A stretch of 64,000 nucleotides of DNA from Acidobacteriota bacterium (GCA_036507075.1 DASXQR010000152.1:91189-155188), one strand, 5' to 3'; shown: positions 1-63,997, counted from the first letter of the stretch. Notes: a model not told the origin generated them from the sequence alone. Numbers and translations are program-made.

Positions 1-1758
1 GGATTCGTCAGTCAAAACGCCGAGTTAGCCAAGAAAGTACTTCTGGAGAGAAATGCAATAAAGGGCAACAGTATCGGCGTACGAATAGCCGTAAGCGGCT
101 TTCAGCCGGCGGGCTCGACAAAGAGCCGCGAATTTGGCTTCCCCAACGTCGCAGGCGCCGGTTCTCCACTTGTGCTCCAGAATAATTCCATCTTCGGTAA
201 CTTACAGTTCGGTGTCCGCATCGAAAATCGGAATACGGACCTGGGAGGTGGCTCATTCGGGAGTACAGGAGGTAACATCCTCTCGGCCAACGGTCAACTG
301 GATCTGACTAACGAATCTGGCGGTCGCATCTCGGCCAAGAACAACGTCTGGTCCAGTGCTGATCCGAATGAGATTCTAAGCAGGTATGTCACTCCTGGTG
401 CAGGGATCGACGTCGCTCCAGTCATGCCTGTACAGTCGAAGTACTTTGCTCAATTCGTCGAGTTGTCCGGCTTTACATCCAAGGCAACCCTGACCAATTC
501 GTCGCGTACCAATGGCGCTGCGGCATTACTTGCTTTTCGGAATTCTGCCGGTGTAGCGCAGAATGTACCACTTAACGGCAGCGACAGCGTTAACGGGCTG
601 CAGCCCGGGGCTGTCGCCGCGCTTGGAGCAGCTTCGTTTGCAACTAGCGCGGCAACGACGGCTGTCAATGTCGGCTCGCTCACTGTCGCCTCTGGCCGTC
701 CGCTTGCCGGGACTGTACTGTTTTCCGGCCCTTCGGGTGTTGCCGGAGTAGGCGCGTCTGAATTGCTTACTCAGTTCATCGCTCCTGTGGAAAGAAACAC
801 TGCCAAGTCCGTGAACTCCGGCGTCGCAATCACCAATCCGAATACGACGACGGCGGTTGGTGTCCAACTGCGGCTGCGCGAGAATTCTACTGGCCAGATT
901 CGGCAGGCGACGCTGCAGCTTGCGGCCGGCGGTCAGGCGGCTAAATTTATCGATGAGTTGTTTTTAGGATTGCCCAACGACTTCGTCGGCACATTAATCG
1001 CCGCTGCGCCGACACAGATTGCCGCAACCATCATTCGCACCAGTCCTGGCCAATTTGCCACATTGCCGGTGACCGGCGCCGGAGTGAAGAAGCTTCTCTT
1101 CGCACAGTTCGGCGAGGTGACGGGTGTCAGCTCGACACTCACCTTTGTGAATCCTTCCACGGACAAAACGGCCAACGTGACGGTGAAACTCTATGACGAC
1201 AACGGCGCCCCGCTCACTGTAAATCTGGGCGGTCAGGATCGGGCCGGGCAGTTTAACTTTAATGTGTCGCCGCAGAGTTCCGTCAGCTTCAGTTCTCCGG
1301 GAACGAGTGCTGCGGCCAAAGTTGGGTCCGTAGTTGTCGATTCGACTGAAAACATCGGGGGCACGATTCTGTTTGGCGGTGCATTTGGATTGGCAGGAGT
1401 GGGCGCAAGCCAGGCACTTTCAAACTTTATTGCGCCGGTTGAGCAAAGCGCCACAGGCAACGTGACCATCGGCGTGGCGCTGATGAACCTCGGCACGGCC
1501 GAAGTTACGGTTCGTCTGACGCTGCGCGATGAATCCGGTACGCCGCTCAGCAACGGCACCGTCGATGTAAAGCTGAAAGGTCTGGGCCACGATGCCAAAT
1601 TTATCGCCCAGCATTTCTCTAACCTGGATCTGAAAGATTTCCGGGGGACGATCACCGGAGAAGTCATAGGCCAGGGCCAGATCGGCGCCACGGTGATCCG
1701 ACAGTCAGGCGCGCCGCTGGAATTCGCGACGCTGCCGGTAGCGGAGATTATCCCTTAA
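1..1758 (+). CDS. 5'-truncated large surface protein ('gene A'): beta-helix-like repeats plus two tandem ~220-aa C-terminal domains (FAQF...TLPV)
   Basis: Frame is open from base 1 (GFVSQNAELAKKVLLERNAIKGNSIGVRI...). N-x-I-x-G-N repeats suggest a parallel beta-helix. Two internal copies of a domain starting FAQF and ending FATLPV. Confidence 0.75.
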   Translation, partial: GFVSQNAELAKKVLLERNAIKGNSIGVRIAVSGFQPAGSTKSREFGFPNVAGAGSPLVLQNNSIFGNLQFGVRIENRNTDLGGGSFGSTGGNILSANGQLDLTNESGGRISAKNNVWSSADPNEILSRYVTPGAGIDVAPVMPVQSKYFAQFVELSGFTSKATLTNSSRTNGAAALLAFRNSAGVAQNVPLNGSDSVNGLQPGAVAALGAASFATSAATTAVNVGSLTVASGRPLAGTVLFSGPSGVAGVGASELLTQFIAPVERNTAKSVNSGVAITNPNTTTAVGVQLRLRENSTGQIRQATLQLAAGGQAAKFIDELFLGLPNDFVGTLIAAAPTQIAATIIRTSPGQFATLPVTGAGVKKLLFAQFGEVTGVSSTLTFVNPSTDKTANVTVKLYDDNGAPLTVNLGGQDRAGQFNFNVSPQSSVSFSSPGTSAAAKVGSVVVDSTENIGGTILFGGAFGLAGVGASQALSNFIAPVEQSATGNVTIGVALMNLGTAEVTVRLTLRDESGTPLSNGTVDVKLKGLGHDAKFIAQHFSNLDLKDFRGTITGEVIGQGQIGATVIRQSGAPLEFATLPVAEIIP

Positions 1759-1987
1759 CCAGTGCATCTGAGTCCAAGCCTCCTGAGCGTGGCCTGCTGT
1801 TCCAAAACCAATTCACGGAGCGGCCTGCCCGTTAATTTGCAAATATTCGTGATGCGCGGCGAAACCTCCGCGAGCGATGGGGGAATGGCAGGTTTGCAGT
1901 TCTTGTTCCAGAAGATCGAAGGCCAGGCTCCGTTGTTGTCGCACCACGCGTGGCATTAGGTTTATACTCATGCGCGCGGTTTTTCGG

Positions 1988-2322
1988 GGCCGTTGGTTGA
2001 TCTTGATACACCGCCCGCCGATCGAATCCAGTGACATTACAGTCACCGCGACTTCCTTGCGCGCCCTTCAGGTCTATGCGCCGAAATCACAGCGGGCCGA
2101 CTATGTGAAGCCGCGGGAATGCCGGTTACCGATCAAGTCTATCGACGCGGGATCCGCTTTCTTCTGAACACCCAGCTCGAAGACGGGTCCTGGTATGTCC
2201 GTTCCCGTTCCATGCCTTTCCAGCCCTTTTTTGAAAGCGGATTCCCCCACGGACATGACCAGTGGATTTCCGCAGCCGCCAGCAACTGGGCCACCATGGC
2301 GCTGGCGCCGGCAGCGCGATAA
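1988..2322 (+). pseudogene. 3' remnant of a prenyltransferase/squalene-cyclase-repeat protein (usually ankyrin-fused), with internal deletion/frameshift
   Basis: RPPIESSDITVTATSLRALQVY in one frame, then RRGIRFLLNTQLEDGSWYVRSR...FPHGHDQWISAAA in another (QxxDGSW motif). No start or N-terminus. Confidence 0.65.
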
Positions 2323-2388
2323 GCCTTGAGGCTGCCGGGCCAATGTGCGGGCATTCAAGGCCATCGTTCCACCTCCTTGCCAGAGTGA

Positions 2389-2418
2389 TTGCAGCTTCAT
2401 CTGATATCGTTATATGAT
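2389..2418 (+). promoter_or_regulatory. sigma70-like promoter TTGCAG-N18-TATGAT, 6 nt before the antitoxin ATG
   Basis: Motifs read directly; no RBS, so probably leaderless. Confidence 0.5.
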
Positions 2419-2424
2419 GACGGT

Positions 2425-2655
2425 ATGCGGACCATCATTGACCTCCCGGAAGACCAGATTGAGGCGCTCGACGAGTGGTGCCGGCGAAAGAAGATCTCTC
2501 GCGCCGAGGCGATTCGCCAGGCGGTTGCCCAGCTTTTACCGCGCCACAAGTCGAGCTGGCGAAATCATCCTGCCGTGGGCTTGTGGAAGGGACAAAAAAG
2601 GCGGGCCGATTCGGTCGAATACGTCCGCCGCGTTCGGAAAGAGTGGCAGCGGTGA
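2425..2655 (+). CDS. vapB: CopG/ribbon-helix-helix antitoxin
   Basis: MRTIIDLPEDQIEALDEWCRRKKISRAEAIRQAV RHH pattern; GTGA overlap with the PIN gene. Confidence 0.8.
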   Translation: MRTIIDLPEDQIEALDEWCRRKKISRAEAIRQAVAQLLPRHKSSWRNHPAVGLWKGQKRRADSVEYVRRVRKEWQR

Positions 2656-3017
2656 AAGCGCTGTTCGATTCGAACATTGTAATTGACGCGCTCAAGGCCA
2701 TTCCGCTCGCTTTTGAGGAACTCGAGCGGTACGAGGAATGTCTGATCAGCCGCATCACATGGATCGAAATTCTTGCCGGAGCGGAGTCAATGCTCGAAGA
2801 GCAGGCATTTCGGGATTATCTGAAAAAATTCAGCATCCGCGAATTGGATGGACCGGTCAGCGAACGCGTCATCAGCCTGCGTCGGAAATACAAATTGAAG
2901 ATCCCCGACGCGATTATCTGGGCAACAGCCGAGCACGAAGGCTGTATCCTGGTCACGCGCAACACGAAAGATTATCCCAAAGACCTTCCGGGGATCCGGT
3001 TCCCGTATAGGCTATAA
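2652..3017 (+). CDS. vapC: PIN-domain toxin
   Basis: LFDSNIVID, E in ITWIEIL, PDAIIWATA, LVTRNTKDY. Confidence 0.9.
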   Translation: MKALFDSNIVIDALKAIPLAFEELERYEECLISRITWIEILAGAESMLEEQAFRDYLKKFSIRELDGPVSERVISLRRKYKLKIPDAIIWATAEHEGCILVTRNTKDYPKDLPGIRFPYRL

Positions 3018-3061
3018 CGCCGGGAAAAGAAAATGTTGCGGACTTTGGCGCATAACCGCGG

Positions 3062-3152
3062 TTAGTGCCGCGCAGACTGCATTTCGATGACTCGAATCCG
3101 GTGCTTGAGGTGGTGGATCTGGCGCCGGACCTCGTGCAGCTTTGTGTGGTCG
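3062..3152 (-). pseudogene. 3'-terminal 29-codon copy (B') of the gene at 4902-5234
   Basis: DHTKLHEVRRQIHHLKHRIRVIEMQSARH*: 28/29 aa identical to gene B; 12/91 nt differ by manual count, nearly all silent. Confidence 0.9.
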
Positions 3153-3386
3153 GGTAAATGGGGGACAGTCCCCTTTGGGTGGTAAATGGGGGACAGTCCC
3201 CTTTTTTCAGTCAATGGGGGACAGTCCCCTTTGGGTGGTAAATGGGGGACAGTCCCCTTTTTTCAGTCAAATGGGGACAGTCCCCTTTTTTCGGTCCCTT
3301 TTTTCGAGGGTCGATTTGAAACTCTGGTAAATGTAATACGGTTCTGTCCCCACATCCCCAATAGGTGTCTGTCCCCACATCCCCAC
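3153..3386. repeat. Array of five GGGGAC-A-GTCCCC palindromes plus two TGTCCCCACATCCCCA half-copies
   Basis: Read directly; the same motif occurs at 35655-35719 and 63974-63997. Confidence 0.9.
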
Positions 3387-3396
3387 GTCGATCCGC

Positions 3397-3822
3397 GTAG
3401 TCGACTCCACGGAAAACATCGGCGGGACGATATTGTTCGGCGGTAGTTTCGGACTGGCTGGAGCGGGAGCAAGCCAGGCGCTCTCAAATTTCATTGCACC
3501 GGTCGAGCAGAGCACCACCGGTAATGTGACGATCGGGGTGGCGCTGATGAACCTCGGCACGGCTGAAGTGACCGTCCGGCTGACACTGCGCGATGAATCG
3601 GGCACACCGCTGACCAACGGCACCGTCGATGTGAAGCTGAAAGGCCTTGGCCACGACGCCAAATTCATCGCCCAGCATTTCCCGAATCTGGATCTGAAGG
3701 ATTTTCGCGGCACAATAACCGGAGAAGTGGTAGGCCAGGGCCAGATTGGCGCCACCGTGATAAGGCAGTCTGGCGCGCCCCTTGAGTTTGCGACCTTGCC
3801 GGTGGCAGAGATTATTCCATAA
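3397..3822 (+). pseudogene. 3'-terminal 141-codon copy (A') of gene A (1333-1758)
   Basis: 135/141 aa identical, many synonymous differences, no 5' part. Confidence 0.9.
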
Positions 3823-3930
3823 GAATAACTCACCACAGAGGCACAGCCCGGCAAAGCCGCAACCACACGCGTCATCATCATTGTGCCTTTTGCACGCGAA
3901 GCAACGTTTCCTTCCGGCTTTTGTTCCGCT

Positions 3931-4461
3931 TCATTTCTTTTCCGGTCCGATGACGTCTTCGACGGATCGCCGGAAGGAAGCAGGGCTGATAGATGGATAG
4001 CGGTATAGTTGCGGCTCGATTTGCGAAAAGAACCGCCATGTTTCATCCGGCTCGATTAAGCCGCGCCGGATCATCTCGCGCACGTCGGCCAGATCCTGAT
4101 CGTGACTGCGTTCAATTTTTGCAAGAGCCTGGGAATACAGGTCGTAGTGATAAAAGGAAATCTTCCCTTCACGGGCGATGAAGACACTCCGGTCTTGCCA
4201 TCCAGGAAGCTCCGGAATGAAGTCGGCGGGCCAGGCCAGCTCCACGTTGATTTGCAGCGTCTCCTTCAATTTGGGAATCGCTCGCAGCAACAAGTCATGT
4301 TCCGGGATAAAGCGTACGTCGACGTCGATAGTCGCCTGGCGCCATCCAAGCAGAACAGCAGTTGCACCTCCGGTCAGATAGAAACGGGTTTCCTGCTGCG
4401 TTTCAAGTGCGATGGCACGCAGGAAACGCCAGATCCGGTCTGCATCCGCTATCTGGCGCAT
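3931..4461 (-). CDS. DUF6036/AbiEii-like nucleotidyltransferase, putative toxin
   Basis: FYLTGGATAVLLGWRQATIDVD (GG...T-x-D-x-D) and late K-x-x-R...D-x-x-D motif. Confidence 0.75.
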   Translation of the reverse strand: MRQIADADRIWRFLRAIALETQQETRFYLTGGATAVLLGWRQATIDVDVRFIPEHDLLLRAIPKLKETLQINVELAWPADFIPELPGWQDRSVFIAREGKISFYHYDLYSQALAKIERSHDQDLADVREMIRRGLIEPDETWRFFSQIEPQLYRYPSISPASFRRSVEDVIGPEKK

Positions 4462-4724
4462 TCCGCTGCACGTTCGAAGCTTACCAGGCGGCGAATCAGG
4501 GCATTGTAACGGGAGTGTGCGCCATCGGGATCGGATTCGGCAAGCTTGCGATACAGCCGTTGCTCCGGCAAGGAAATGGTCGAATTCGGCAGCGAGAAAC
4601 CGAGCCTTCTAAGCCTGGGCGCGCCGATAGAGACGAGCAGCGCAGGAATGGTTTCAACGCCCCTGTACAGGTCCTCGATGCCAGCCTGCACCAGTTCATT
4701 CCCCGGAAGCTGGTCTGTCCGCAT
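4449..4724 (-). CDS. Small partner protein of the nucleotidyltransferase, putative antitoxin
   Basis: 91 aa, overlaps the downstream NTase start; TGn-TAACAT 7 nt upstream. Confidence 0.6.
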   Translation of the reverse strand: MRTDQLPGNELVQAGIEDLYRGVETIPALLVSIGAPRLRRLGFSLPNSTISLPEQRLYRKLAESDPDGAHSRYNALIRRLVSFERAAECAR

Positions 4725-4764
4725 TCGCTTTATGTTAACACGGCCGGCTAAATCGATCTGCAGC

Positions 4765-4884
4765 CATCAGTGCCCGCGCTTCAGCCCCAGACGGACCGCC
4801 AGGCGCGCCGCGGGCTGACGCCGCCGCGGTACTGACGCTGGACAGATAGCACAAAGATCTTTGTGTTCTTCGTGTCTTTGTGGT
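4765..4884. repeat. REP-like element (CCGCGGGCTGACGCCGCCGCGGTACTG) plus a CACAAAG-type hairpin
   Basis: About 70 bp resemble 55502-55568. Confidence 0.7.
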
Positions 4885-4901
4885 GCATAACTTCGGTTTC
4901 G

Positions 4902-5234
4902 TCAGTGCCGCGCCGATTGCATTTCAATTACGCGGATGCGGTGCTTGAGATGGTGGATCTGGCGCCGGATTTCATGCAGCTTTGTGTGGTCGTGAGCCTG
5001 GACCAGACCGTCGCGCTGCGTCTTCAACTGGTGGATCTGATGCTTCAGCTCGGACTTGGTGTGGACCACGTTGTCGGAAAAATGCACGTGGGGCTTTTCA
5101 ATTCCCAGGGCATGGGCCAGCTCGTCCATCAGTTGCTCTTTGTGCTTCCCGTGCACAGCCTCAATCTGGGGAAACTTCAGCGCCTCTTCGCGCAGCTTTA
5201 CAACAGTCATCTTTTCCAAATCTTTCCATTCCAT
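4902..5234 (-). CDS. 'Gene B': small His-rich protein with a Rho-N-like N-terminus and coiled coil
   Basis: MEWKDLEKMTVVKLREEA...KEQLM resembles Rho_N/SAP-like helices; AGGGGG RBS. Confidence 0.7.
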   Translation of the reverse strand: MEWKDLEKMTVVKLREEALKFPQIEAVHGKHKEQLMDELAHALGIEKPHVHFSDNVVHTKSELKHQIHQLKTQRDGLVQAHDHTKLHEIRRQIHHLKHRIRVIEMQSARH

Positions 5235-5315
5235 ACAGAACCCCCTTATGGTTTGGTGAATCGGTGTTGAACTGTGGATTACGGAATCTATAAGGCGGAT
5301 TATATTCCCACTCTG

Positions 5316-5378
5316 ATTCACCACAAAGACACAAAGGACACAAAATCAAAATTTGTGTCTTTGTGCCTTTGTGGTTTT
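5316..5378. repeat. CCACAAAGACACAAAG inverted repeat (REP-like, possible terminator)
   Basis: Arms read directly, just downstream of gltD. Confidence 0.8.
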
Positions 5379-5379
5379 T

Positions 5380-6828
5380 TTAGTTGAGCGGGGCCGGGAG
5401 TTCGGAGTTTCCCATCAGGAACTGGTCGACGCCGCGGGCGGCCGATCGGCCTTCGGCGATGGCCCAGACAATCAGCGACTGGCCGCGCTGCATGTCGCCG
5501 CACACGAATACGCCGGGCACGCTGGTCATCCAGTTTTTGTCGCGCCACACGTTGCTTCGTTCCGTAAGCCGCACGCCCAGTTCCTCGAGCAATCCGTTGC
5601 GCTCCGGCCCGATGAAACCCATGGCCAGCAGCACCAGCTCCGCATCGAGGATGAATTCGCTGCCGGGAATCGCGCGGAAGCCGACATTTCCATTCTCGCG
5701 AACCATTTCGGCCTTGACTGCTTCGAGCTGCCGGACTCTGCCGTCTCCGTCTCCGATAAATCGCTGCGTCGAAACCGAGTAAACCCGCTCGCCGCCCTCT
5801 TCATGCGCCCCGGAAACACGAAAAATGTTGGGCCACTGAGGCCACGGGTTGTCGATGCCGCGCGTATCGGGAGGCCGCGACAACAGTTCGAATTGATGAA
5901 CTGAGCGGGCCTTCTGGCGATGCACCGTGCCCAGACAGTCGGCTCCCGTGTCGCCGCCGCCGATGATCACCACGCGTTTCCCTTCGGCGCTGACGAAATC
6001 TGAATCCGGAACATAGTCTCCTTCGCAGCGGCGATTCTGGAGCGTCAGGTAATCCATGGCGAAATGAATGCCCTGGAGCTCGCGGCCCGGAATTTTCAAG
6101 TCGCGCGGCCAGCGGGCCCCGCCGGCCAGCACCACGGCGTCATAGTCAGACTTCAACTGCGCGGCCGGCAGCGTCACACCCACATTTACACCGGTGCGAA
6201 ACTCCACGCCTTCTTCCTGCATGATGCGCAGTCGCCGGTCCAGGAATCGTTTTTCCATCTTGAATTCCGGGATACCGTAGCGCAGCAGGCCGCCGATTCG
6301 ATCGTCGCGCTCGTAAACGGTGACATGGTGCCCGGCGCGGTTCAACTGCTCGGCTGCGGCCAGGCCGGCCGGACCTGAACCGACCACGGCCACCCTCTTC
6401 CCGGTGCCCACCGCCGGGGGTTTCGCAGCGATCCATCCCTCGTCGAAAGCCCGTTCTATGATCGACAGCTCCACGCCCTTGATTGTGACCGGATCATCGC
6501 TGATTCCGAGAACGCACGACCCCTCGCAGGGAGCAGGACAGAGGCGACCCGTCCATTCAGGAAAATTGTTTGTGGCGTGCAGACGGTCAATGGCTTCGCG
6601 CCAGTGATCGCGGTAAACCAGATCATTAAAATCGGGGATGATGTTCCCGAGCGGGCAACCCTCGTGGCAGAAAGGAATGCCACAATCCATGCAGCGGGCC
6701 GCCTGCATCTGCAGTTCTTCCTTCGGATAAGGAAGATAAACCTCCTGCCAGTCGCGAACGCGCTCCTGCACCGGCCGCGCCGGAGGCTTCTTGCGCTTGA
6801 TCTCAATAAAGCCCGTAATTTTACCCAC
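5380..6828 (-). CDS. gltD: Glutamate synthase small subunit
   Basis: GKITGF start (GTG overlapping gltB stop), [22 protein letters not shown]. Confidence 0.97.
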
Positions 6829-9800
6829 CGCCGGCACCCACCAGTTCTTCAAAGGTGGCTTCGCGCTGTTCGGCGCGCGCCCGCGCTTCTGCCTGAAGGA
6901 CCCGCTTGTAGTCTCTGGGCATGACTTTAATGAACTGTTTTTGCATCGAAATCCAGTTGGTCAGGATTCCGGCGGCATAGCCGGACTGTGTTGCGTCGAA
7001 GTGTCGCGCAATCAGGTCGCGCACCGTTTCGATGTCTTCCGGCTGATCCAGCGGTCCCAGGTCGACCATTCCCAGATTGCAGCGCTGCGCAAACTTGCCT
7101 TCGCGGTCGAGCACGTAGGCGATCCCTCCGCTCATCCCGGCGGCGAAATTGCGTCCCGTCCTGCCCAGCACAACCACCCGTCCGCCGGTCATGTATTCGC
7201 AGCCGTGGTCGCCCACTCCCTCAACCACGGTCAGCGCGCCGCTGTTGCGCACGGCGAATCTTTCGCCTGCAACGCCCCGCACAAAAGCTTCACCGCTGGT
7301 GGCGCCGTAGAGCGCCACGTTGCCGATGACGATGTTTTCTTCCGGAACGAAAGTTGAACCCCGGGGCGGATAAACCACCAGCTTCCCGCCGGACAATCCC
7401 TTCCCCCAGTAGTCATTGGAGTCGCCTTCCAGCGTGAGCGAAATCCCTTTCGGCAGGAACGCGCCGAAGCTCTGTCCGGCCGAGCCGTTAAAATGAATGC
7501 GAATCGTGTCGTCGGGAAGACCCGCGCCGCCCCAGCGCGAAGTGAGCTCGTATCCCAGCATGGTCCCCACAGTACGATTCACATTTCGAATGGGAAGCGA
7601 GAACCGGATCGGCTTTTTGTAAAGCAAAGCCTGCTTGCAGCGGGAAATCAATGCGTTATCCAGCGCCTTTTCAAGCCCGTGGTCCTGAGCGCGCACGCGT
7701 CGCCGCGCAACCGACGGCGGCATATCCGGCTGGTGGAGTATCGAGGAATAGTCCAGCCCTTTGGCCTTCCAATGGTCCAGGGCCGGCTTGAAATCGAGTC
7801 GATCGACCCGGCCGATCATTTCATCCATAGTCCGAAATCCCAGCCGTGCCATCCGCTCGCGCACTTCTTCGGCGATGAAGCGGAAAAAATTCTCCACAAA
7901 CTCAGGCTTGCCGTTGAAAAGCTTGCGCAGTTCCGGATCCTGCGTGGCCACTCCGACAGGGCAGGTGTTCAAGTGGCAAACACGCATCATTACGCATCCC
8001 AGCACCACCAGAGGAGCAGTGGAAAAACCGAATTCTTCAGCACCCAGCAAAGCGGCGATCACCACATCGCGCCCGGTCTTCATCTGCCCGTCCACCTGAA
8101 CCACGATGCGGTCGCGCAGTTTGTTCATCACCAGCACCTGCTGCGTTTCCGCCACACCCAGCTCCCACGGTATGCCGCCGTGCTTGATGCTGGTCAGAGG
8201 CGATGCTCCGGTGCCTCCGTCGTGCCCGGAGATCAGCACCACATCGGAATGAGCCTTCGCCACGCCTGCGGCAACGGTTCCCACACCCATTTCCGCCACC
8301 AGCTTTACGTGCACGCGCGCTTTCGGATTGGCGTTTTTCAAGTCGTGGATCAGTTGCGCGATGTCTTCAATGGAATAAATGTCGTGGTGCGGAGGCGGTG
8401 AAATCAGCCCTACACCGGGCGTGGCATAACGGACTTTGGCGATCCAGGGATAAACCTTATGTCCCGGAAGCTGCCCGCCTTCGCCGGGTTTGGCGCCCTG
8501 CGCCATTTTGATCTGAAGATCATCGGCATTAACGAGATATTCGCTGGTTACCCCGAAACGCGCCGAGGCGACCTGCTTGATGGCGCTGCGCCGCCAGTCT
8601 CCATTTCGGTCCCGCTTATACCGAGCCGGGTCTTCTCCTCCTTCGCCGGTGTTGGATTTGCCGCCCATGCGATTCATGGCGATGGCCAGAGTCTCATGCG
8701 CCTCGGCGCTGATCGAGCCGTAGGACATGGCTCCGGTTGCAAAGCGCTTGATGATGGACTCGATGGGCTCTACTTCCTCAATGGGGACCGGCGCGGCCGC
8801 CTCTTTCAGTTCAAAAAGGCCGCGCAGGGTGGCCAGACGGCGGTTCTGATCGTCCACCAGACCGGTGTATTCCTTGAAGATCTTATATTGTCCCGAGCGC
8901 GTCGCGTGCTGCAGCTTGAAGACAGTTTCAGGATTGAATAGATGGAACTCGCCGTCGCGCCTCCATTGGTACTCTCCGCCCCACTCCAGCTCCGGCTCGC
9001 TCACCGGGCGCGGCGAGAAGGCGCGCTCGTGACGGCGGCGCCCTTCCTCGGCGACGATATCAATACCGATTCCTTCCACGCGCGAGGGCGTCCAGGTGAA
9101 ATAGCGGTCGATAAATTCCTTGTTCAATCCGATGGCCTCAAAAATCTGGGCGCCGCAATAGCTCTGCAGCGTGGAGATGCCCATCTTGGACATCACTTTC
9201 AAAATTCCCTTGTTTAGCGACTTGATATAGTTTTTGACCGCCTTCTTATGGTCGATGCCGGGCAGCAGTCCCTGGCGAATCATGTCATCCAGGGATTCAA
9301 ACGCCACCCACGGATTGACTGCGCCCGCTCCATAGCCGATCAGCAGAGACACGTGGTGCACTTCGCGCGCATCTCCGGTTTCGATCACCAGCGCGCAGCG
9401 CGTGCGCGTGCCTTCACGAACCAGGTGATGATGGATGGCCGCCGTCGCGAGCAAACTTGGAATGGGCGCACATTCTTCGTTCACGCCGCGATCGCTGAGA
9501 ATCAGGATGTTGTGTCCTTGTGCGATCGCCTGGCTGGCCCGCGCCTGCAGGGTTTCAATGGCATCGCCCAGTGCTTCACCGCCGCCGTTTACACGGTAGA
9601 GCATGGGTAGGGTATAAGCCCTGAACGCATCGAGCGGACTCTCACTCTCCCTCTCTCCCTCTCTCCCTCTCTCCCGCTCTCCATCCCTCCGTCCCTCCGT
9701 CCCTCCGTCTCCCCTTTCCCCAACCCCAAGGTGCTTAATCTTGGCCAGCTCGTCATTATCAATGATGGGATACTTGACCTTGATCTGGCGGCAGGATTCC

Positions 9801-11479
9801 GGCTGCGCTTCGAGCAGGTTGCCCTCCGGTCCGATGGTGCTTTCCATGGTGGTCACCAATTCTTCGCGAATCGCATCCAGCGGAGGATTGGTCACCTGGG
9901 CAAAGAGCTGCTTGAAGTAGTCGTAAAGCAGCCGCGGGCGATCGGATAGAACCGCCAGCGCAGTGTCGGTTCCCATCGAGCCGATCGGCTCTTCTCCCGC
10001 CTGGGCCATGGGGCCGAGCAGGATACGCAGATCTTCGTGGGTATAGCCGAAAACCAATTGCCGCGTCAGTACCGTTTCGTGGTCCGGCGCCGGCACAGGA
10101 TGGGCGGGAACATCTTCCAGGCTGATCAGATTCTTAGACAGCCATTCGCCGTAGGGGCGTTCTGCGGCAAGTTGAGATTTGATTTCGTCATCGGAAATGA
10201 TTCTTCCCTGCGACGTGTCCACCAGAAAGATGCGCCCGGGGTGCAGTCTTTCTTTGATCAGAATATTTTCCGCCGGAATGTCCAGCACTCCCACTTCGGA
10301 CGCCATGATTACCATGTCGTCCCGGGTGACGTAGTATCGGGAGGGTCGCAGGCCGTTGCGATCCAGCACTGCGCCGATAACGGTTCCATCGGTGAAGGCA
10401 ATGGAGGCCGGCCCGTCCCAGGGCTCCATCAGGGAGGAATGATACTCATAGAAGGCCTTCCGCTCTGCCGGCATGCTTTCATTGCCGCCCCAGGGTTCCG
10501 GAATCATCATCAATATGGCATGCGGCAGGCTGCGGCCGTTCATCACCAAAAACTCGAGCACGTTGTCAAAGATGGCCGAGTCGCTTCCCCCTTCGCGGAT
10601 TACCGGAAAAACTTTGTGCAGGTCTTCGCCCAGCAGATCCGACCGGCACAGAGCCTGGCGCGCCCGCATCCAGTTGATATTTCCACGCAGCGTATTGATC
10701 TCGCCGTTGTGGGCGATGTATCGGTACGGGTGGGCCAGCGGCCAGGACGGGAATGTGTTTGTGCTGAAGCGCTGATGGACCAGAGCCAGCGCCGATTCCA
10801 TGTCGGGATCGGCCAGATCCGGATACATGGATTCGATCTGGGTGGCCGTGAGCATTCCCTTGTAGATGAGCGTGCTGGACGACAGGCTGGGAATATAGAA
10901 GAGCTTCCTCTCGGAAAGGGGGAGCGCGTCGGCGGCATTCTCAATCCGCTTGCGGATCACATAGAGCTTGCGCTCGAAGTGTGCCTGGTCCTTCAACCCG
11001 GCGCCCCGGCCGATAAACATCTGCCTCATCTTAGGCTCGACGGCCCGGGCCGACTCACCCAACAGGTGATCATCAGCAGGCACATCGCGCCAGCCCAGGA
11101 ACTGCTGGCCCTCTTCGACCGTGATCCTTGAAATCAGTTCCTCAAGCAACTGCCTCTGGGCCTGGTCGCGGGGAAGGAAAACAAAGCCCACACCGTAGTC
11201 CTTTGACGGAGGCAGAGGAATATCCAGCCGGGCGCACTCGCGCCGCAAAAACCTGTCCGGAACCTGCATCAGTATGCCGGCGCCGTCGCCCGTATTGACC
11301 TCGCAGCCGCAGGCGCCGCGATGCACCAGGTTGATGAGCACCTGGAGAGCCTGGCGGATGATGGTGTGGGATTTTACTCCCTTGATGTTCACCACAAATC
11401 CCACTCCGCACGCATCGTGCTCGAACCAGGGATCGTACAGACCCTGTGCCGGTGGCGGTCCCGCTGCAAGCTGCCTCAT
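6821..11479 (-). CDS. gltB: Glutamate synthase large subunit
   Basis: [46 protein letters not shown] before ATG 11479. Confidence 0.98.
9639..9727 (-). repeat. Purine-rich octamer repeat translated in frame within gltB
   Basis: GGGAGAGA/GGGACGGA units encode [28 protein letters not shown]. Confidence 0.85.
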
Positions 11480-11675
11480 GAATTCCTCCCGAACCTGATT
11501 GCAAGGGATGATACCTAAACTTCTTCCATTCGCAATACGCAATGTTTGCATAGTATTCATGAGTAAAACGCATGGAAGCCGTGAACGCGGGAAAAGACTT
11601 CACGATGGCAGCCAAACTCGCGGGCTATCATGCTAGGTTGCCCCTACGATTTTCTGATATCATATTTTGTTTTGC

Positions 11676-11749
11676 GGCGGCGTAGCTCAGTTGGTCAGAG
11701 CATGCGGCTCATATCCGCAGTGTCCGGGGTTCGAGTCCCTGCGCCGCCA
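11676..11749 (+). tRNA. tRNA-Met(CAT), elongator type, CCA not encoded
   Basis: GGCGGCG/CGCCGCC acceptor stem, TGCGG-CTCATAT-CCGCA anticodon arm, GGTTCGAGTCC T arm. Confidence 0.93.
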
Positions 11750-11807
11750 TATCGAAATTCGCGCAAACTGGTTCCAACCGGCGACACACAGGGCCGCAAA
11801 GAACAAC

Positions 11808-12869
11808 ATGGCTCATCGCGAAACCCGCAACCCGAAACTGGTAACCCGAAACCTGGAACCGAAGACGCGCCCTTCCATATCGGCAAACGAACTGGTCAGC
11901 CGCCCGCGCCGCCTGCGCAGATCCGCTCTGCTGCGCAGCCTGGTTCGCGAGAACAGCGTGGAAAAGAACGACCTGATCTTCCCGATGTTCGTTTGCGCCG
12001 GCCAGAAGGTGAAGCGCGAAATCACAGCCATGCCGGGAAACTTTCAGTTTTCCGTCGATCGGCTCCTGACCGAGCTCGAGTCGGTGTGCAAAGCCGGTAT
12101 TTCATCCATCATTCTTTTTGGCCTGCCGGAAAGGAAAGACGCGTTCGCCACCGAAGCTTACTCGGCCAGCGGCCCGGTGCCCGCGGCGCTCCGGGCGATC
12201 AAGAAGGAAAAGCTGCCATTGATCTGTATCGCCGATGTCTGCCTTTGCGAATACACCGACCATGGCCACTGTGGTCTGGTGGACGGGGAAGAGATTCTCA
12301 ATGATCCGAGCCTGGAGGTTTTGGCGCGCACCGGCGTGGCGCTTGCCGATGCCGGCGCCGACATCATCGCCCCCTCCGACATGATGGACGGCCGCGTCGC
12401 CGCCATACGCGCCGGCCTCGATGCAGCCGGTCATGAGAACGTCGCCATTCTTTCCTACGCCGCAAAATACGCGTCGGCCTTCTACGGGCCCTTCCGGCAG
12501 GCGGCCGATTCGGCGCCCCAGTTCGGCGACCGGCGGAGTTATCAGATGGACCCAGCCAACGGCAGGGAGGCGCTCAAGGAAGTTGCGCTCGACATACAGG
12601 AAGGCGCTGATATGGTAATGGTCAAACCGGCGCTCCCTTATCTGGATATCGTCTACCAGGTGCGCCAGCAGTTTCAGGTTCCGGTGGCGGCATACCATGT
12701 CAGCGGCGAATTCTCGGCCATCATGGCGGCAGCACAGAACGGGTGGCTCGACGAAGAACGGGCGATGATGGAATGCCTGGTGGCCATCAAACGCGCGGGC
12801 GCAGACTTTATTCTCACCTACTACGCCAGACAGGCGTCCCTGCTGATCGATCAGGGATGGTTCCGGTGA
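11808..12869 (+). CDS. hemB: Porphobilinogen synthase (Zn type)
   Basis: [31 protein letters not shown]; first ATG after the tRNA. Confidence 0.95.
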
Positions 12870-35654: not shown

Positions 35655-35719
35655 AATTGGGGGACTGTCCCCATTTTTAATTGGGGGACTGTCCCCATTT
35701 TTAATTCCCATTTTTAATT
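35655..35719. repeat. Tandem 24-bp AATTGGGGGACTGTCCCCATTTTT palindromes
   Basis: Two exact copies plus a partial one. Confidence 0.85.
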
Positions 35720-63973: not shown

Positions 63974-63997
63974 AAAATGGGGACAGTCCCCTTTTTT
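63974..63997. repeat. GGGGACAGTCCCC palindrome
   Basis: Same motif as the 3153 array. Confidence 0.8.

Follow-up and report, generated by a model that had tools for sequence, protein, structure and literature searches.

Two diverged versions of one intergenic interval, each with its own toxin-antitoxin-like cargo, stand in tandem across a REP cluster in an Acidobacteriota genome

When phages and genomic islands insert at the 3′ end of a gene, they can supply a replacement tail, as phage 21 and e14 do in icd. At Rhs and type VI secretion system (T6SS) loci, displacement of the type produced by homology-facilitated illegitimate recombination (HFIR) and leaving shifted 3′ ends has been proposed (Kirchberger et al. 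2017, PMC5361080; this and the other accounts cited here are drawn on in excerpt). In this displacement, at Rhs, contact-dependent inhibition (CDI) and T6SS loci alike, an incoming allele and its downstream cargo are anchored by homology in the conserved part of the gene, and the old 3′ end with its cargo is shifted downstream without an integrase. HFIR as described for transformation and conjugation (PMC3240628) combines a seamless homologous junction with an illegitimate joint and leaves foreign DNA beside resident DNA, and transformation merodiploids (Johnston et al. 2013, PMC3784515) are tandem duplications with a dispersed repeat at the join in which both copies are kept. Here we describe a locus in a 64,000-nucleotide (nt) stretch of DNA from an Acidobacteriota bacterium (GCA_036507075.1, DASXQR010000152.1:91189-155188; hereafter the window) in which two versions of the interval between two convergent genes, A and B, lie in tandem on either side of a cluster of repetitive extragenic palindromic (REP) sequences, each version with different toxin-antitoxin-like cargo.

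Sequence analysis gives the order, from left to right, as gene A, a vapBC pair (cargo 1), the 3′ end of a second version of gene B (B′), the palindrome array, the 3′ end of a second version of gene A (A′), a pair of small genes that includes a nucleotidyltransferase gene (cargo 2), and gene B (Table 1). The window lies on contig C152 of a genome assembly (G000) of 6.1 Mb in 233 contigs, with 56% G+C, 95.7% completeness and 2% contamination. Both flanking genes are whole: A is a full open frame of 950 amino acids (aa; 934 aa in the NCBI gene call P0016) that runs uninterrupted through position 1333, and B is an intact open reading frame (ORF). The A tail and A′ align without gaps, with 353 of 426 nt and 135 of 141 aa identical, and B′ (3062-3152) matches B (4902-4992) at 79 of 91 nt (12 differences) and 28 of 29 aa, the homology extending about 18 nt beyond the stop codon. 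Each pair forms direct repeats. This order, the two amino-acid identities and the 12 differences between B′ and B had been reported in an initial annotation, made by a model from the sequence alone, and the alignments confirm them.

The differences between the paired tails are concentrated at silent sites. Third codon positions hold 62 of the 73 nt differences between the A tail and A′, for which the synonymous divergence (dS) is 1.14, the nonsynonymous divergence (dN) 0.024 and the dN/dS ratio 0.021; the corresponding values for B′ and B are a dS of 0.86 and a dN/dS of 0.017. The longest run of identity between A and A′ is 26 nt and is internal to the repeat. No further copies of the duplicated tails were found in the 6.1-Mb genome by blastn, and the A-domain paralogues that rank next share 39-46% protein identity, such that A′ and B′ have no better match there than A and B; the initial annotation had named closer paralogues as an outcome that would undo its reading. 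The protein encoded by gene A is of the secreted type, with an N-terminal beta-helix/DUF1565 part followed by repeated C-terminal domains of about 135 aa, and the duplicated part corresponds to one complete copy of this domain, which is widespread in proteins of the class (matches span query residues 1-8 to 137-141).

Neither fragment is judged able to work, as A′ lacks the N-terminal part and B′ consists of 29 codons fused to array sequence. Because a dS near 1 with a dN/dS of 0.02 cannot arise in place in non-functional fragments, the divergence supports an origin in two lineages, in which the two versions of A and of B would have diverged as working genes at roughly the distance that separates different species; the same proposal in the initial annotation is borne out by these values. 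The two versions were brought together recently relative to their divergence, and one of the two segments is of foreign (diverged) origin. Comparison of G+C content, overall and at third codon positions, did not distinguish a resident from a foreign half. A′ and B′ are dead passengers, A and B are intact, and two toxin-antitoxin-like modules co-reside at the locus.

Any route to this arrangement requires one illegitimate joint, running from inside B through the array to inside A, and the B′/array/A′ joint is non-homologous. The array contains five exact copies of GGGGACAGTCCCC, at 3161, 3189, 3217, 3245 and 3273, with a period of 28 nt and all in the same orientation, forming a direct tandem array with locus-specific spacers and an exact internal duplication of 58 nt. 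Its flank holds only half-sites, within a 25-nt tandem repeat at 3335-3384, and the array folds strongly as single-stranded DNA (z -4.1). Both fragments had been said to end at the edges of the array; this holds for B′, which abuts the first unit directly, but A′ starts 111 nt past the last full palindrome. An array spacer (CTTTGGGTGGT) agrees at 10 of 11 nt with the end of B′ (CTTTGTGTGGT), a match that may reflect microhomology used at the joint or a piece copied during array growth, and the array may post-date the joint.

Table 1. Features of the A–B locus and its right flank, in window coordinates
Feature	Coordinates	Strand	Evidence or remark
Gene A, 3′ part	1..1758	+	Start upstream of window; ORF, Pfam DUF1565, Beta_helix
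A tail: last 141 codons and stop codon	1333..1758	+	Copy continuous with intact gene A
Decayed gene remnant, squalene-cyclase-like C-terminus	1987..2320	+	blastn to contig C134; TIGR01787 below cut-off
VapB-like ribbon-helix-helix antitoxin (cargo 1)	2425..2655	+	Pfam RHH_1 34.4 bits, cut-off 20.5
VapC-like PIN-domain toxin (cargo 1)	2652..3017	+	Pfam PIN 57.5 bits, cut-off 23.6
B′: last 29 codons of B, stop codon, ~18 nt of 3′ flank	3046..3152	-	Cut off at array
REP cluster	3153..3396	.	Five GGGGACAGTCCCC palindromes in 28-nt units (3153-3293), then decayed flank
A′: displaced copy of last 141 codons of A	3397..3822	+	Without N-terminal part
Dispersed intergenic repeat, family other than that of the REP array	3830..3876	.	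Dozens of blastn matches genome-wide
DUF6036 nucleotidyltransferase, 176 aa (cargo 2)	3931..4461	-	Pfam DUF6036 32.8 bits, cut-off 23.6
91-aa partner gene of the nucleotidyltransferase (cargo 2)	4449..4724	-	ORF; 13-nt overlap with nucleotidyltransferase gene
Gene B, intact conserved small protein, 110 aa	4902..5234	-	ORF; no known family
gltD, glutamate synthase small subunit	5380..6828	-	TIGR01317 741.7 bits
gltB	6821-11560		ORF; with gltD forms core-genome right flank

The palindrome belongs to a family spread through the genome. The 13-mer has 70 exact copies (42 forward and 28 of the A/T-centre complement) versus one for a reversed control, and a relaxed motif gives 46 clusters; among the 19 exact-motif clusters viewed with their flanks each has its own spacer, and all appear intergenic as judged by eye, without an ORF check. 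Adjacent palindrome pairs number 36 in this genome versus 12 in total, in six genomes, among the other 136 genomes of the class, and none is present in four genomes of the same family. On contig C163 (36096-37250) a 227-aa ORF encoding a Y1 transposase (Pfam Y1_Tnp 52.5 bits, cut-off 23) has GGGGACAGTCCCC arrays on both sides and is the only array-flanked one among the genome's 12 Y1_Tnp matches; it scores 71.1 bits, just below the cut-off of 80, with the NCBIfam model for the REP-associated tyrosine transposase (RAYT; REP_Tyr_transpos). This RAYT-like gene probably encodes the enzyme serving the palindrome family. The same layout, a short, GC-rich, high-copy extragenic palindrome whose regularly spaced arrays border one Y1 (IS200-like) transposase gene, is described for REPs, bacterial interspersed mosaic elements (BIMEs), REP doublets forming hairpins (REPINs) and their RAYTs (Nunvar 2010, PMC2817692; Bertels & Rainey 2011, PMC3116915). 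Unlike in those accounts, the five copies at our locus share one orientation and lie between two gene fragments, and the RAYT-like score falls short of the model's cut-off. Since this layout is a hallmark of REP/RAYT systems, the array is best classed, from its high copy number, clustering and Y1 gene flanked by its own REPs, as a REP cluster grown by local tandem duplication and not as a special recombination site. A CRISPR-like (clustered regularly interspaced short palindromic repeat) or iteron array was considered and rejected, as there is no spacer diversity and the array is a member of the genome-wide REP family. A further two-copy array is present in the middle of the window (35660-35696), and contig C152 itself ends inside a copy of the palindrome (63979-63991), indicating that these repeats break the assembly.

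REPs reportedly have a role at the join points of duplications (Shyamala, 1990). The initial annotation suggested that the palindromes may initiate the movement of cargo and that other arrays joining the 3′ tails of both flanking genes should be sought. One of the 46 arrays in this genome, the one described here, joins gene-tail duplicates, and a survey of local diverged duplicates counted 70 pairs, among which the A and B pairs alone span these palindromes. Eight array loci from six further genomes were examined. Duplicates spanning palindromes turned up at one of them, in G029, a complete genome, with a different geometry: the palindrome pair lies on the 3′ flank of the fragment instead of at the cut, and the tails, at 96% and 82% identity, are of unequal age. 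This G029 island (G029:C1:5137000-5153500, 4359-11831), in a genome of another family, contains two displaced tails in interleaved order, of an oxidoreductase (82%) and an alpha/beta-hydrolase (96%), which surround a GNAT-like gene, the palindrome pair, a T5orf172-type gene and an Rpn-like nuclease gene (assigned by eye from N-terminal residues); an insertion sequence (IS) transposase gene is located near the island. A general palindrome-initiated cargo mover thus has no recurrence behind it, the array looks like an ordinary member of a REP family with a RAYT-like gene, and a causal role is no more likely than later REP insertion and local growth in a joint free of selection. We give little credence to the stronger idea that RAYT-served REP clusters act as joints that close or trap segments bounded by both 3′ tails, making an integrase-free cassette with built-in homology arms. 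If it were true, one crossover would let such a cassette carry toxin-antitoxin or defence cargo between species-level-diverged lineages, the present locus would be a captured instance, and the displaced tails near dispersed repeats in G029 and on contig C46 (see below) would be related traces.

That the tandem arrangement is real in the chromosome we regard as highly probable. Logan contigs, which are independent short-word assemblies of raw reads, were searched for four sequencing runs, X1, X2 and X3 among them (90% of X1 and 76% of X2 being read). The B′/array joint is crossed by contigs at 2107-3186 in X1 (no differences) and X2 (three differences) and at 3016-3186 in X3, the absence of spanning reads being one outcome against which the initial annotation had cautioned. 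An X3 contig at 3743-3893 connects A′ to cargo 2, and an X1 contig at 3834-5344 connects cargo 2 to B. Logan contigs end, and have loose ends, at 3830, in the dispersed repeat downstream of A′. In JGI/IMG's own calls, P0004 (a 315-aa end-fragment of A), P0021 (VapC), P0014 (the 129-aa A′ ORF) and P0024 (GltD) all have 7,873 nt as the length of their longest contig, and three of the four occur on two JGI contigs; the JGI and NCBI calls differ in first residue or start codon or, for the A end-fragment, in extent. Read most simply, this places genes from either side of the array together on one contig in one or two separate assemblies. Across the junction (3120-3420), none of the 242 31-mers and none of the 242 25-mers occurs elsewhere in the genome; the sole repeat in the junction is the 58-nt duplicate inside the array, which leaves doubt over the unit count alone. 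No homologue of C152 of at least 400 nt is present on other contigs.

We favour, with modest confidence, a heteroallelic tandem of the gap between convergent A and B that arose by one homologous exchange and one illegitimate joint; the recombination route and its direction are what we infer from the observed anatomy, silent-site divergence, REP/RAYT link and assembly support. The donor would be a relative diverged about as far as a different species (dS ~1) with its own version of the A–B interval, and one homologous exchange in a flanking gene together with one illegitimate joint would have trapped the donor interval beside the resident one. With the anchor in A, an incoming linear piece comprising the inside of A, the A tail, vapBC and 91 nt of the donor's B would have joined resident A at codon -141, and the resident A tail, nucleotidyltransferase pair and B would have been pushed downstream; the mirror case, with the anchor in B or gltD, would be equally possible. 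The REP cluster would then have inserted and grown at the joint, or REP hairpins may have helped to form it, and the 17% divergence of the copies, with no identical run above 26 nt, would keep the tandem from collapsing. By analogy with the described systems the outcome is most likely a displacement product of HFIR, with the single frame of A through 1333 and the intact B providing the seamless homologous junction.

A second displaced tail in the same genome bears on this route. At C46:17663-21784 are a gene for a metallo-beta-lactamase (MBL)-fold hydrolase (323 aa), a 103-aa ORF, a DUF4172-Fic/DOC gene and a copy of the last 118 codons of the hydrolase gene, which is identical to it at 327 of 354 nt and 110 of 118 aa (dS 0.24, dN/dS 0.13) and provides a single arm. 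The one-armed C46 tail supports a route with one anchor, and the 10 of 11 nt match between the B′ end and the array spacer may do so. A dispersed repeat of the CACAAAG type, not of the array's family, is found some 30 nt from the cut end of the C46 fragment.

Several observations weigh against this account, or against the arrangement on which it is built. Simple HFIR does not predict an array placed exactly between two truncated ends, and HFIR is rare in the experiments reported (PMC5361080). Neither allele was found alone in any relative, the collections searched holding no close relative, and the donor, the direction and the crossover point are offered only as a proposal. Among the Logan contigs listed, and with the shares of X1 and X2 read, 3293-3742 is uncovered, so that no read-derived contig shows the array/A′ joint directly, a gap that proves nothing at these shares. 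Colinearity in the JGI assembly is deduced from the shared figure of 7,873 nt, and a GltB end fragment predicted at the right end of the JGI contig was sought by exact look-up of four candidates (618-621 aa) and none was found. Depth in X2 is about 9.5-10.4 over the left half versus 3.7 for B, and in X1 12.9-13.3 versus 10.3, where one genome should give equal depths; the X2 imbalance may reflect population heterogeneity or an effect of partial reading.

The gap in coverage and the unequal depths are also what would be expected if two related populations, one with A-vapBC-B and the other with A-nucleotidyltransferase-B, had been stitched together at a repeat during assembly, and the genome is a 233-contig assembly of the metagenome type in which C152 ends in this very palindrome. 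We nonetheless consider such a chimera improbable. The array-truncated B′ is present in three runs, the second assembly has genes of both halves, X3 has a depth near 3 on both halves, and the unique junction words, with no more than 26 nt shared between A and A′, leave no misjoin path in the graph within this genome; a chimera would moreover require two independent truncations of genes at array edges in two organisms. A different reading accepts the tandem and derives it from Campbell-type integration of a circle, comprising the A tail, cargo, the B tail and the array, that recombined once with the resident locus via a homology arm. This was the route proposed in the initial annotation, and one crossover does yield exactly A, cargo 1, B′, array, A′, cargo 2 and B, with direct repeats of the homology arm flanking the inserted DNA. 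It also explains more naturally why both flanking tails are present, since with a single anchor B′ (or A′) is a mere fragment end, and looping-out from the tandem can in turn release such a circle. The order does not demand a circle, however: one homologous exchange with one illegitimate joint yields it too. Closing the circle would itself call for that joint, running out of B, across the array and into A. Among the 13 joints listed for the four runs, none skips 2064 or 1840 nt as a circle-specific or collapsed junction would (a weak test, based on Logan contigs only), the arms are 83-87% identical with identical runs of no more than 26 nt, the C46 tail is one-armed, and the structure is absent at the other 45 arrays of the genome. 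We consider the circle unlikely.

An old tandem duplication in place, after which selection would have maintained both copies as functional genes, A′ and B′ included, is extremely improbable. A′ does comprise one complete domain of about 135 aa in 141 codons without a frameshift or stop, and two annotation pipelines call it as a 129-aa ORF from TTG at 3433 (P0014, P0015). Yet it is without the N-terminal and secretion part, that TTG, 12 codons in, is its only start, B′ is 29 codons fused to array sequence, and the cargo lying between the copies is unrelated; with dS equal and near saturation in both fragments, a single import from a diverged lineage is indicated instead. A site-specific integrative element (phage, integrative and conjugative element, or island) finds no support. 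Pfam scans of 19 ORFs (10 from the interval itself and 9 from 15 kb upstream) revealed no integrase, transposase or recombinase, the boundaries share no identical attachment (att) core, and there is no tRNA gene before position 11676, in keeping with the integrase-free character that the initial annotation had assigned to the locus. The likeness to phage 21 and e14 lies in an intact gene that uses one tail while another, diverged at silent sites, stands at the far end of the insert; unlike in that type, integrase and att core are missing here and the tail of the opposite flanking gene is duplicated as well.

Comparison with the other described systems places the locus closest in pattern to displacement, with differences in each case. 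As at the Rhs, CDI and T6SS loci, an old 3′ end and its cargo would have been shifted downstream of an incoming allele; here, however, a conserved domain from an ordinary secreted protein makes up the displaced tail in place of a polymorphic toxin tip, the toxin-antitoxin-like cargo occupies the gap between two convergent genes, part of the second flanking gene is included, and there is a REP cluster in the joint. Relative to HFIR as reported for transformation and conjugation, ours would be a natural product recognized from sequence, and the donor a diverged allele of the same locus, resulting in a two-allele tandem. The merodiploids span 100-900 kb, arise from identical sister chromosomes and have a repeat at both ends beforehand, whereas the unit here is about 2 kb, its copies are 17% diverged and carry different cargo, and both of its ends are inside genes.

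Related A and B alleles circulate in the same soils. A third A allele is present at low depth in X3, about 90% identical, on a contig at 1277-1608 that crosses position 1333 as an intact gene would, and 7 of its 15 listed variant letters in the duplicated region are common with A′. A Logan B allele (P0019) is intact, and its last 29 residues are those of B′, including the B′ valine. No close relative was found in the collections searched, and none of the matches allowed the A–B interval to be compared. None of our claims depends on the unpublished genome G015. In a DNA search of 41 related genomes, none of the same genus, only the cargo genes, gltD and B matched (65-77%), and a metagenome scan with the A tail returned three weak loci among 310 candidate stretches, at 42-65% over short pieces. 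The best match outside this genome was 48% in the class-wide protein search and 76-79% in protein database searches. Gene B, whose protein belongs to no known family, is single copy wherever it is found (58 of 137 genomes of the class); its closest homologues (59-71% aa identity) are in another family of the class (f6), and genomes of its own family have only 48-49%.

The two cargo modules are unlike one another. The cargo 1 genes overlap by 4 nt and, as adjacent small ribbon-helix-helix and PIN genes in one operon, would constitute a type II VapBC system with predicted activity, and both proteins score below the cut-offs of the NCBIfam VapB and VapC models. What had been described as a nucleotidyltransferase pair contains one such enzyme, of the DUF6036 family, but its 91-aa partner has no Pfam, NCBIfam or PADLOC match; this pair is present in many relatives at about 70% nt identity, in other contexts. 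The earlier label of defence cargo is not borne out, as none of the five cargo or B proteins was matched by PADLOC at E ≤ 0.01, and both modules are better termed toxin-antitoxin-like than assigned to an anti-phage defence family. The remnant upstream of vapBC is a degraded copy of the 3′ portion of a C134 gene, with 77-79% nt identity by blastn to C134:4985-5106 and 5373-5547 and an internal deletion of about 229 nt; a 67-aa gene is called inside it by both NCBI and JGI. Farther upstream are secA, a guaB-type inosine monophosphate dehydrogenase gene, a sigma factor gene and a gene for a type II/IV secretion ATPase, and an Rfam scan matched no family. Dispersed repeat families at 3830-3876, 4860-4888 and 5316-5375 bracket cargo 2 and gene B, those around B (4860-4888 and 5316-5375) being CACAAAG-type inverted repeats, and Logan contigs of all four runs break or branch at these three sites, where the summed depth is very high.

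This is a single case, and it looks like one trapped recombination event rather than a new transfer system. As such the locus would be a natural fossil of the turnover of accessory cargo between conserved genes without mobile-element machinery, in which a diverged allele was added beside the resident instead of replacing it, so that two alternative toxin-antitoxin-like modules share one host and the event is recorded in the dead gene tails. The locus would carry the displacement pattern of polymorphic toxin loci over to ordinary genes, in a soil phylum that has been little studied, and with a REP cluster exactly at the illegitimate joint, the old question of whether REP hairpins promote such joints becomes testable at this site.

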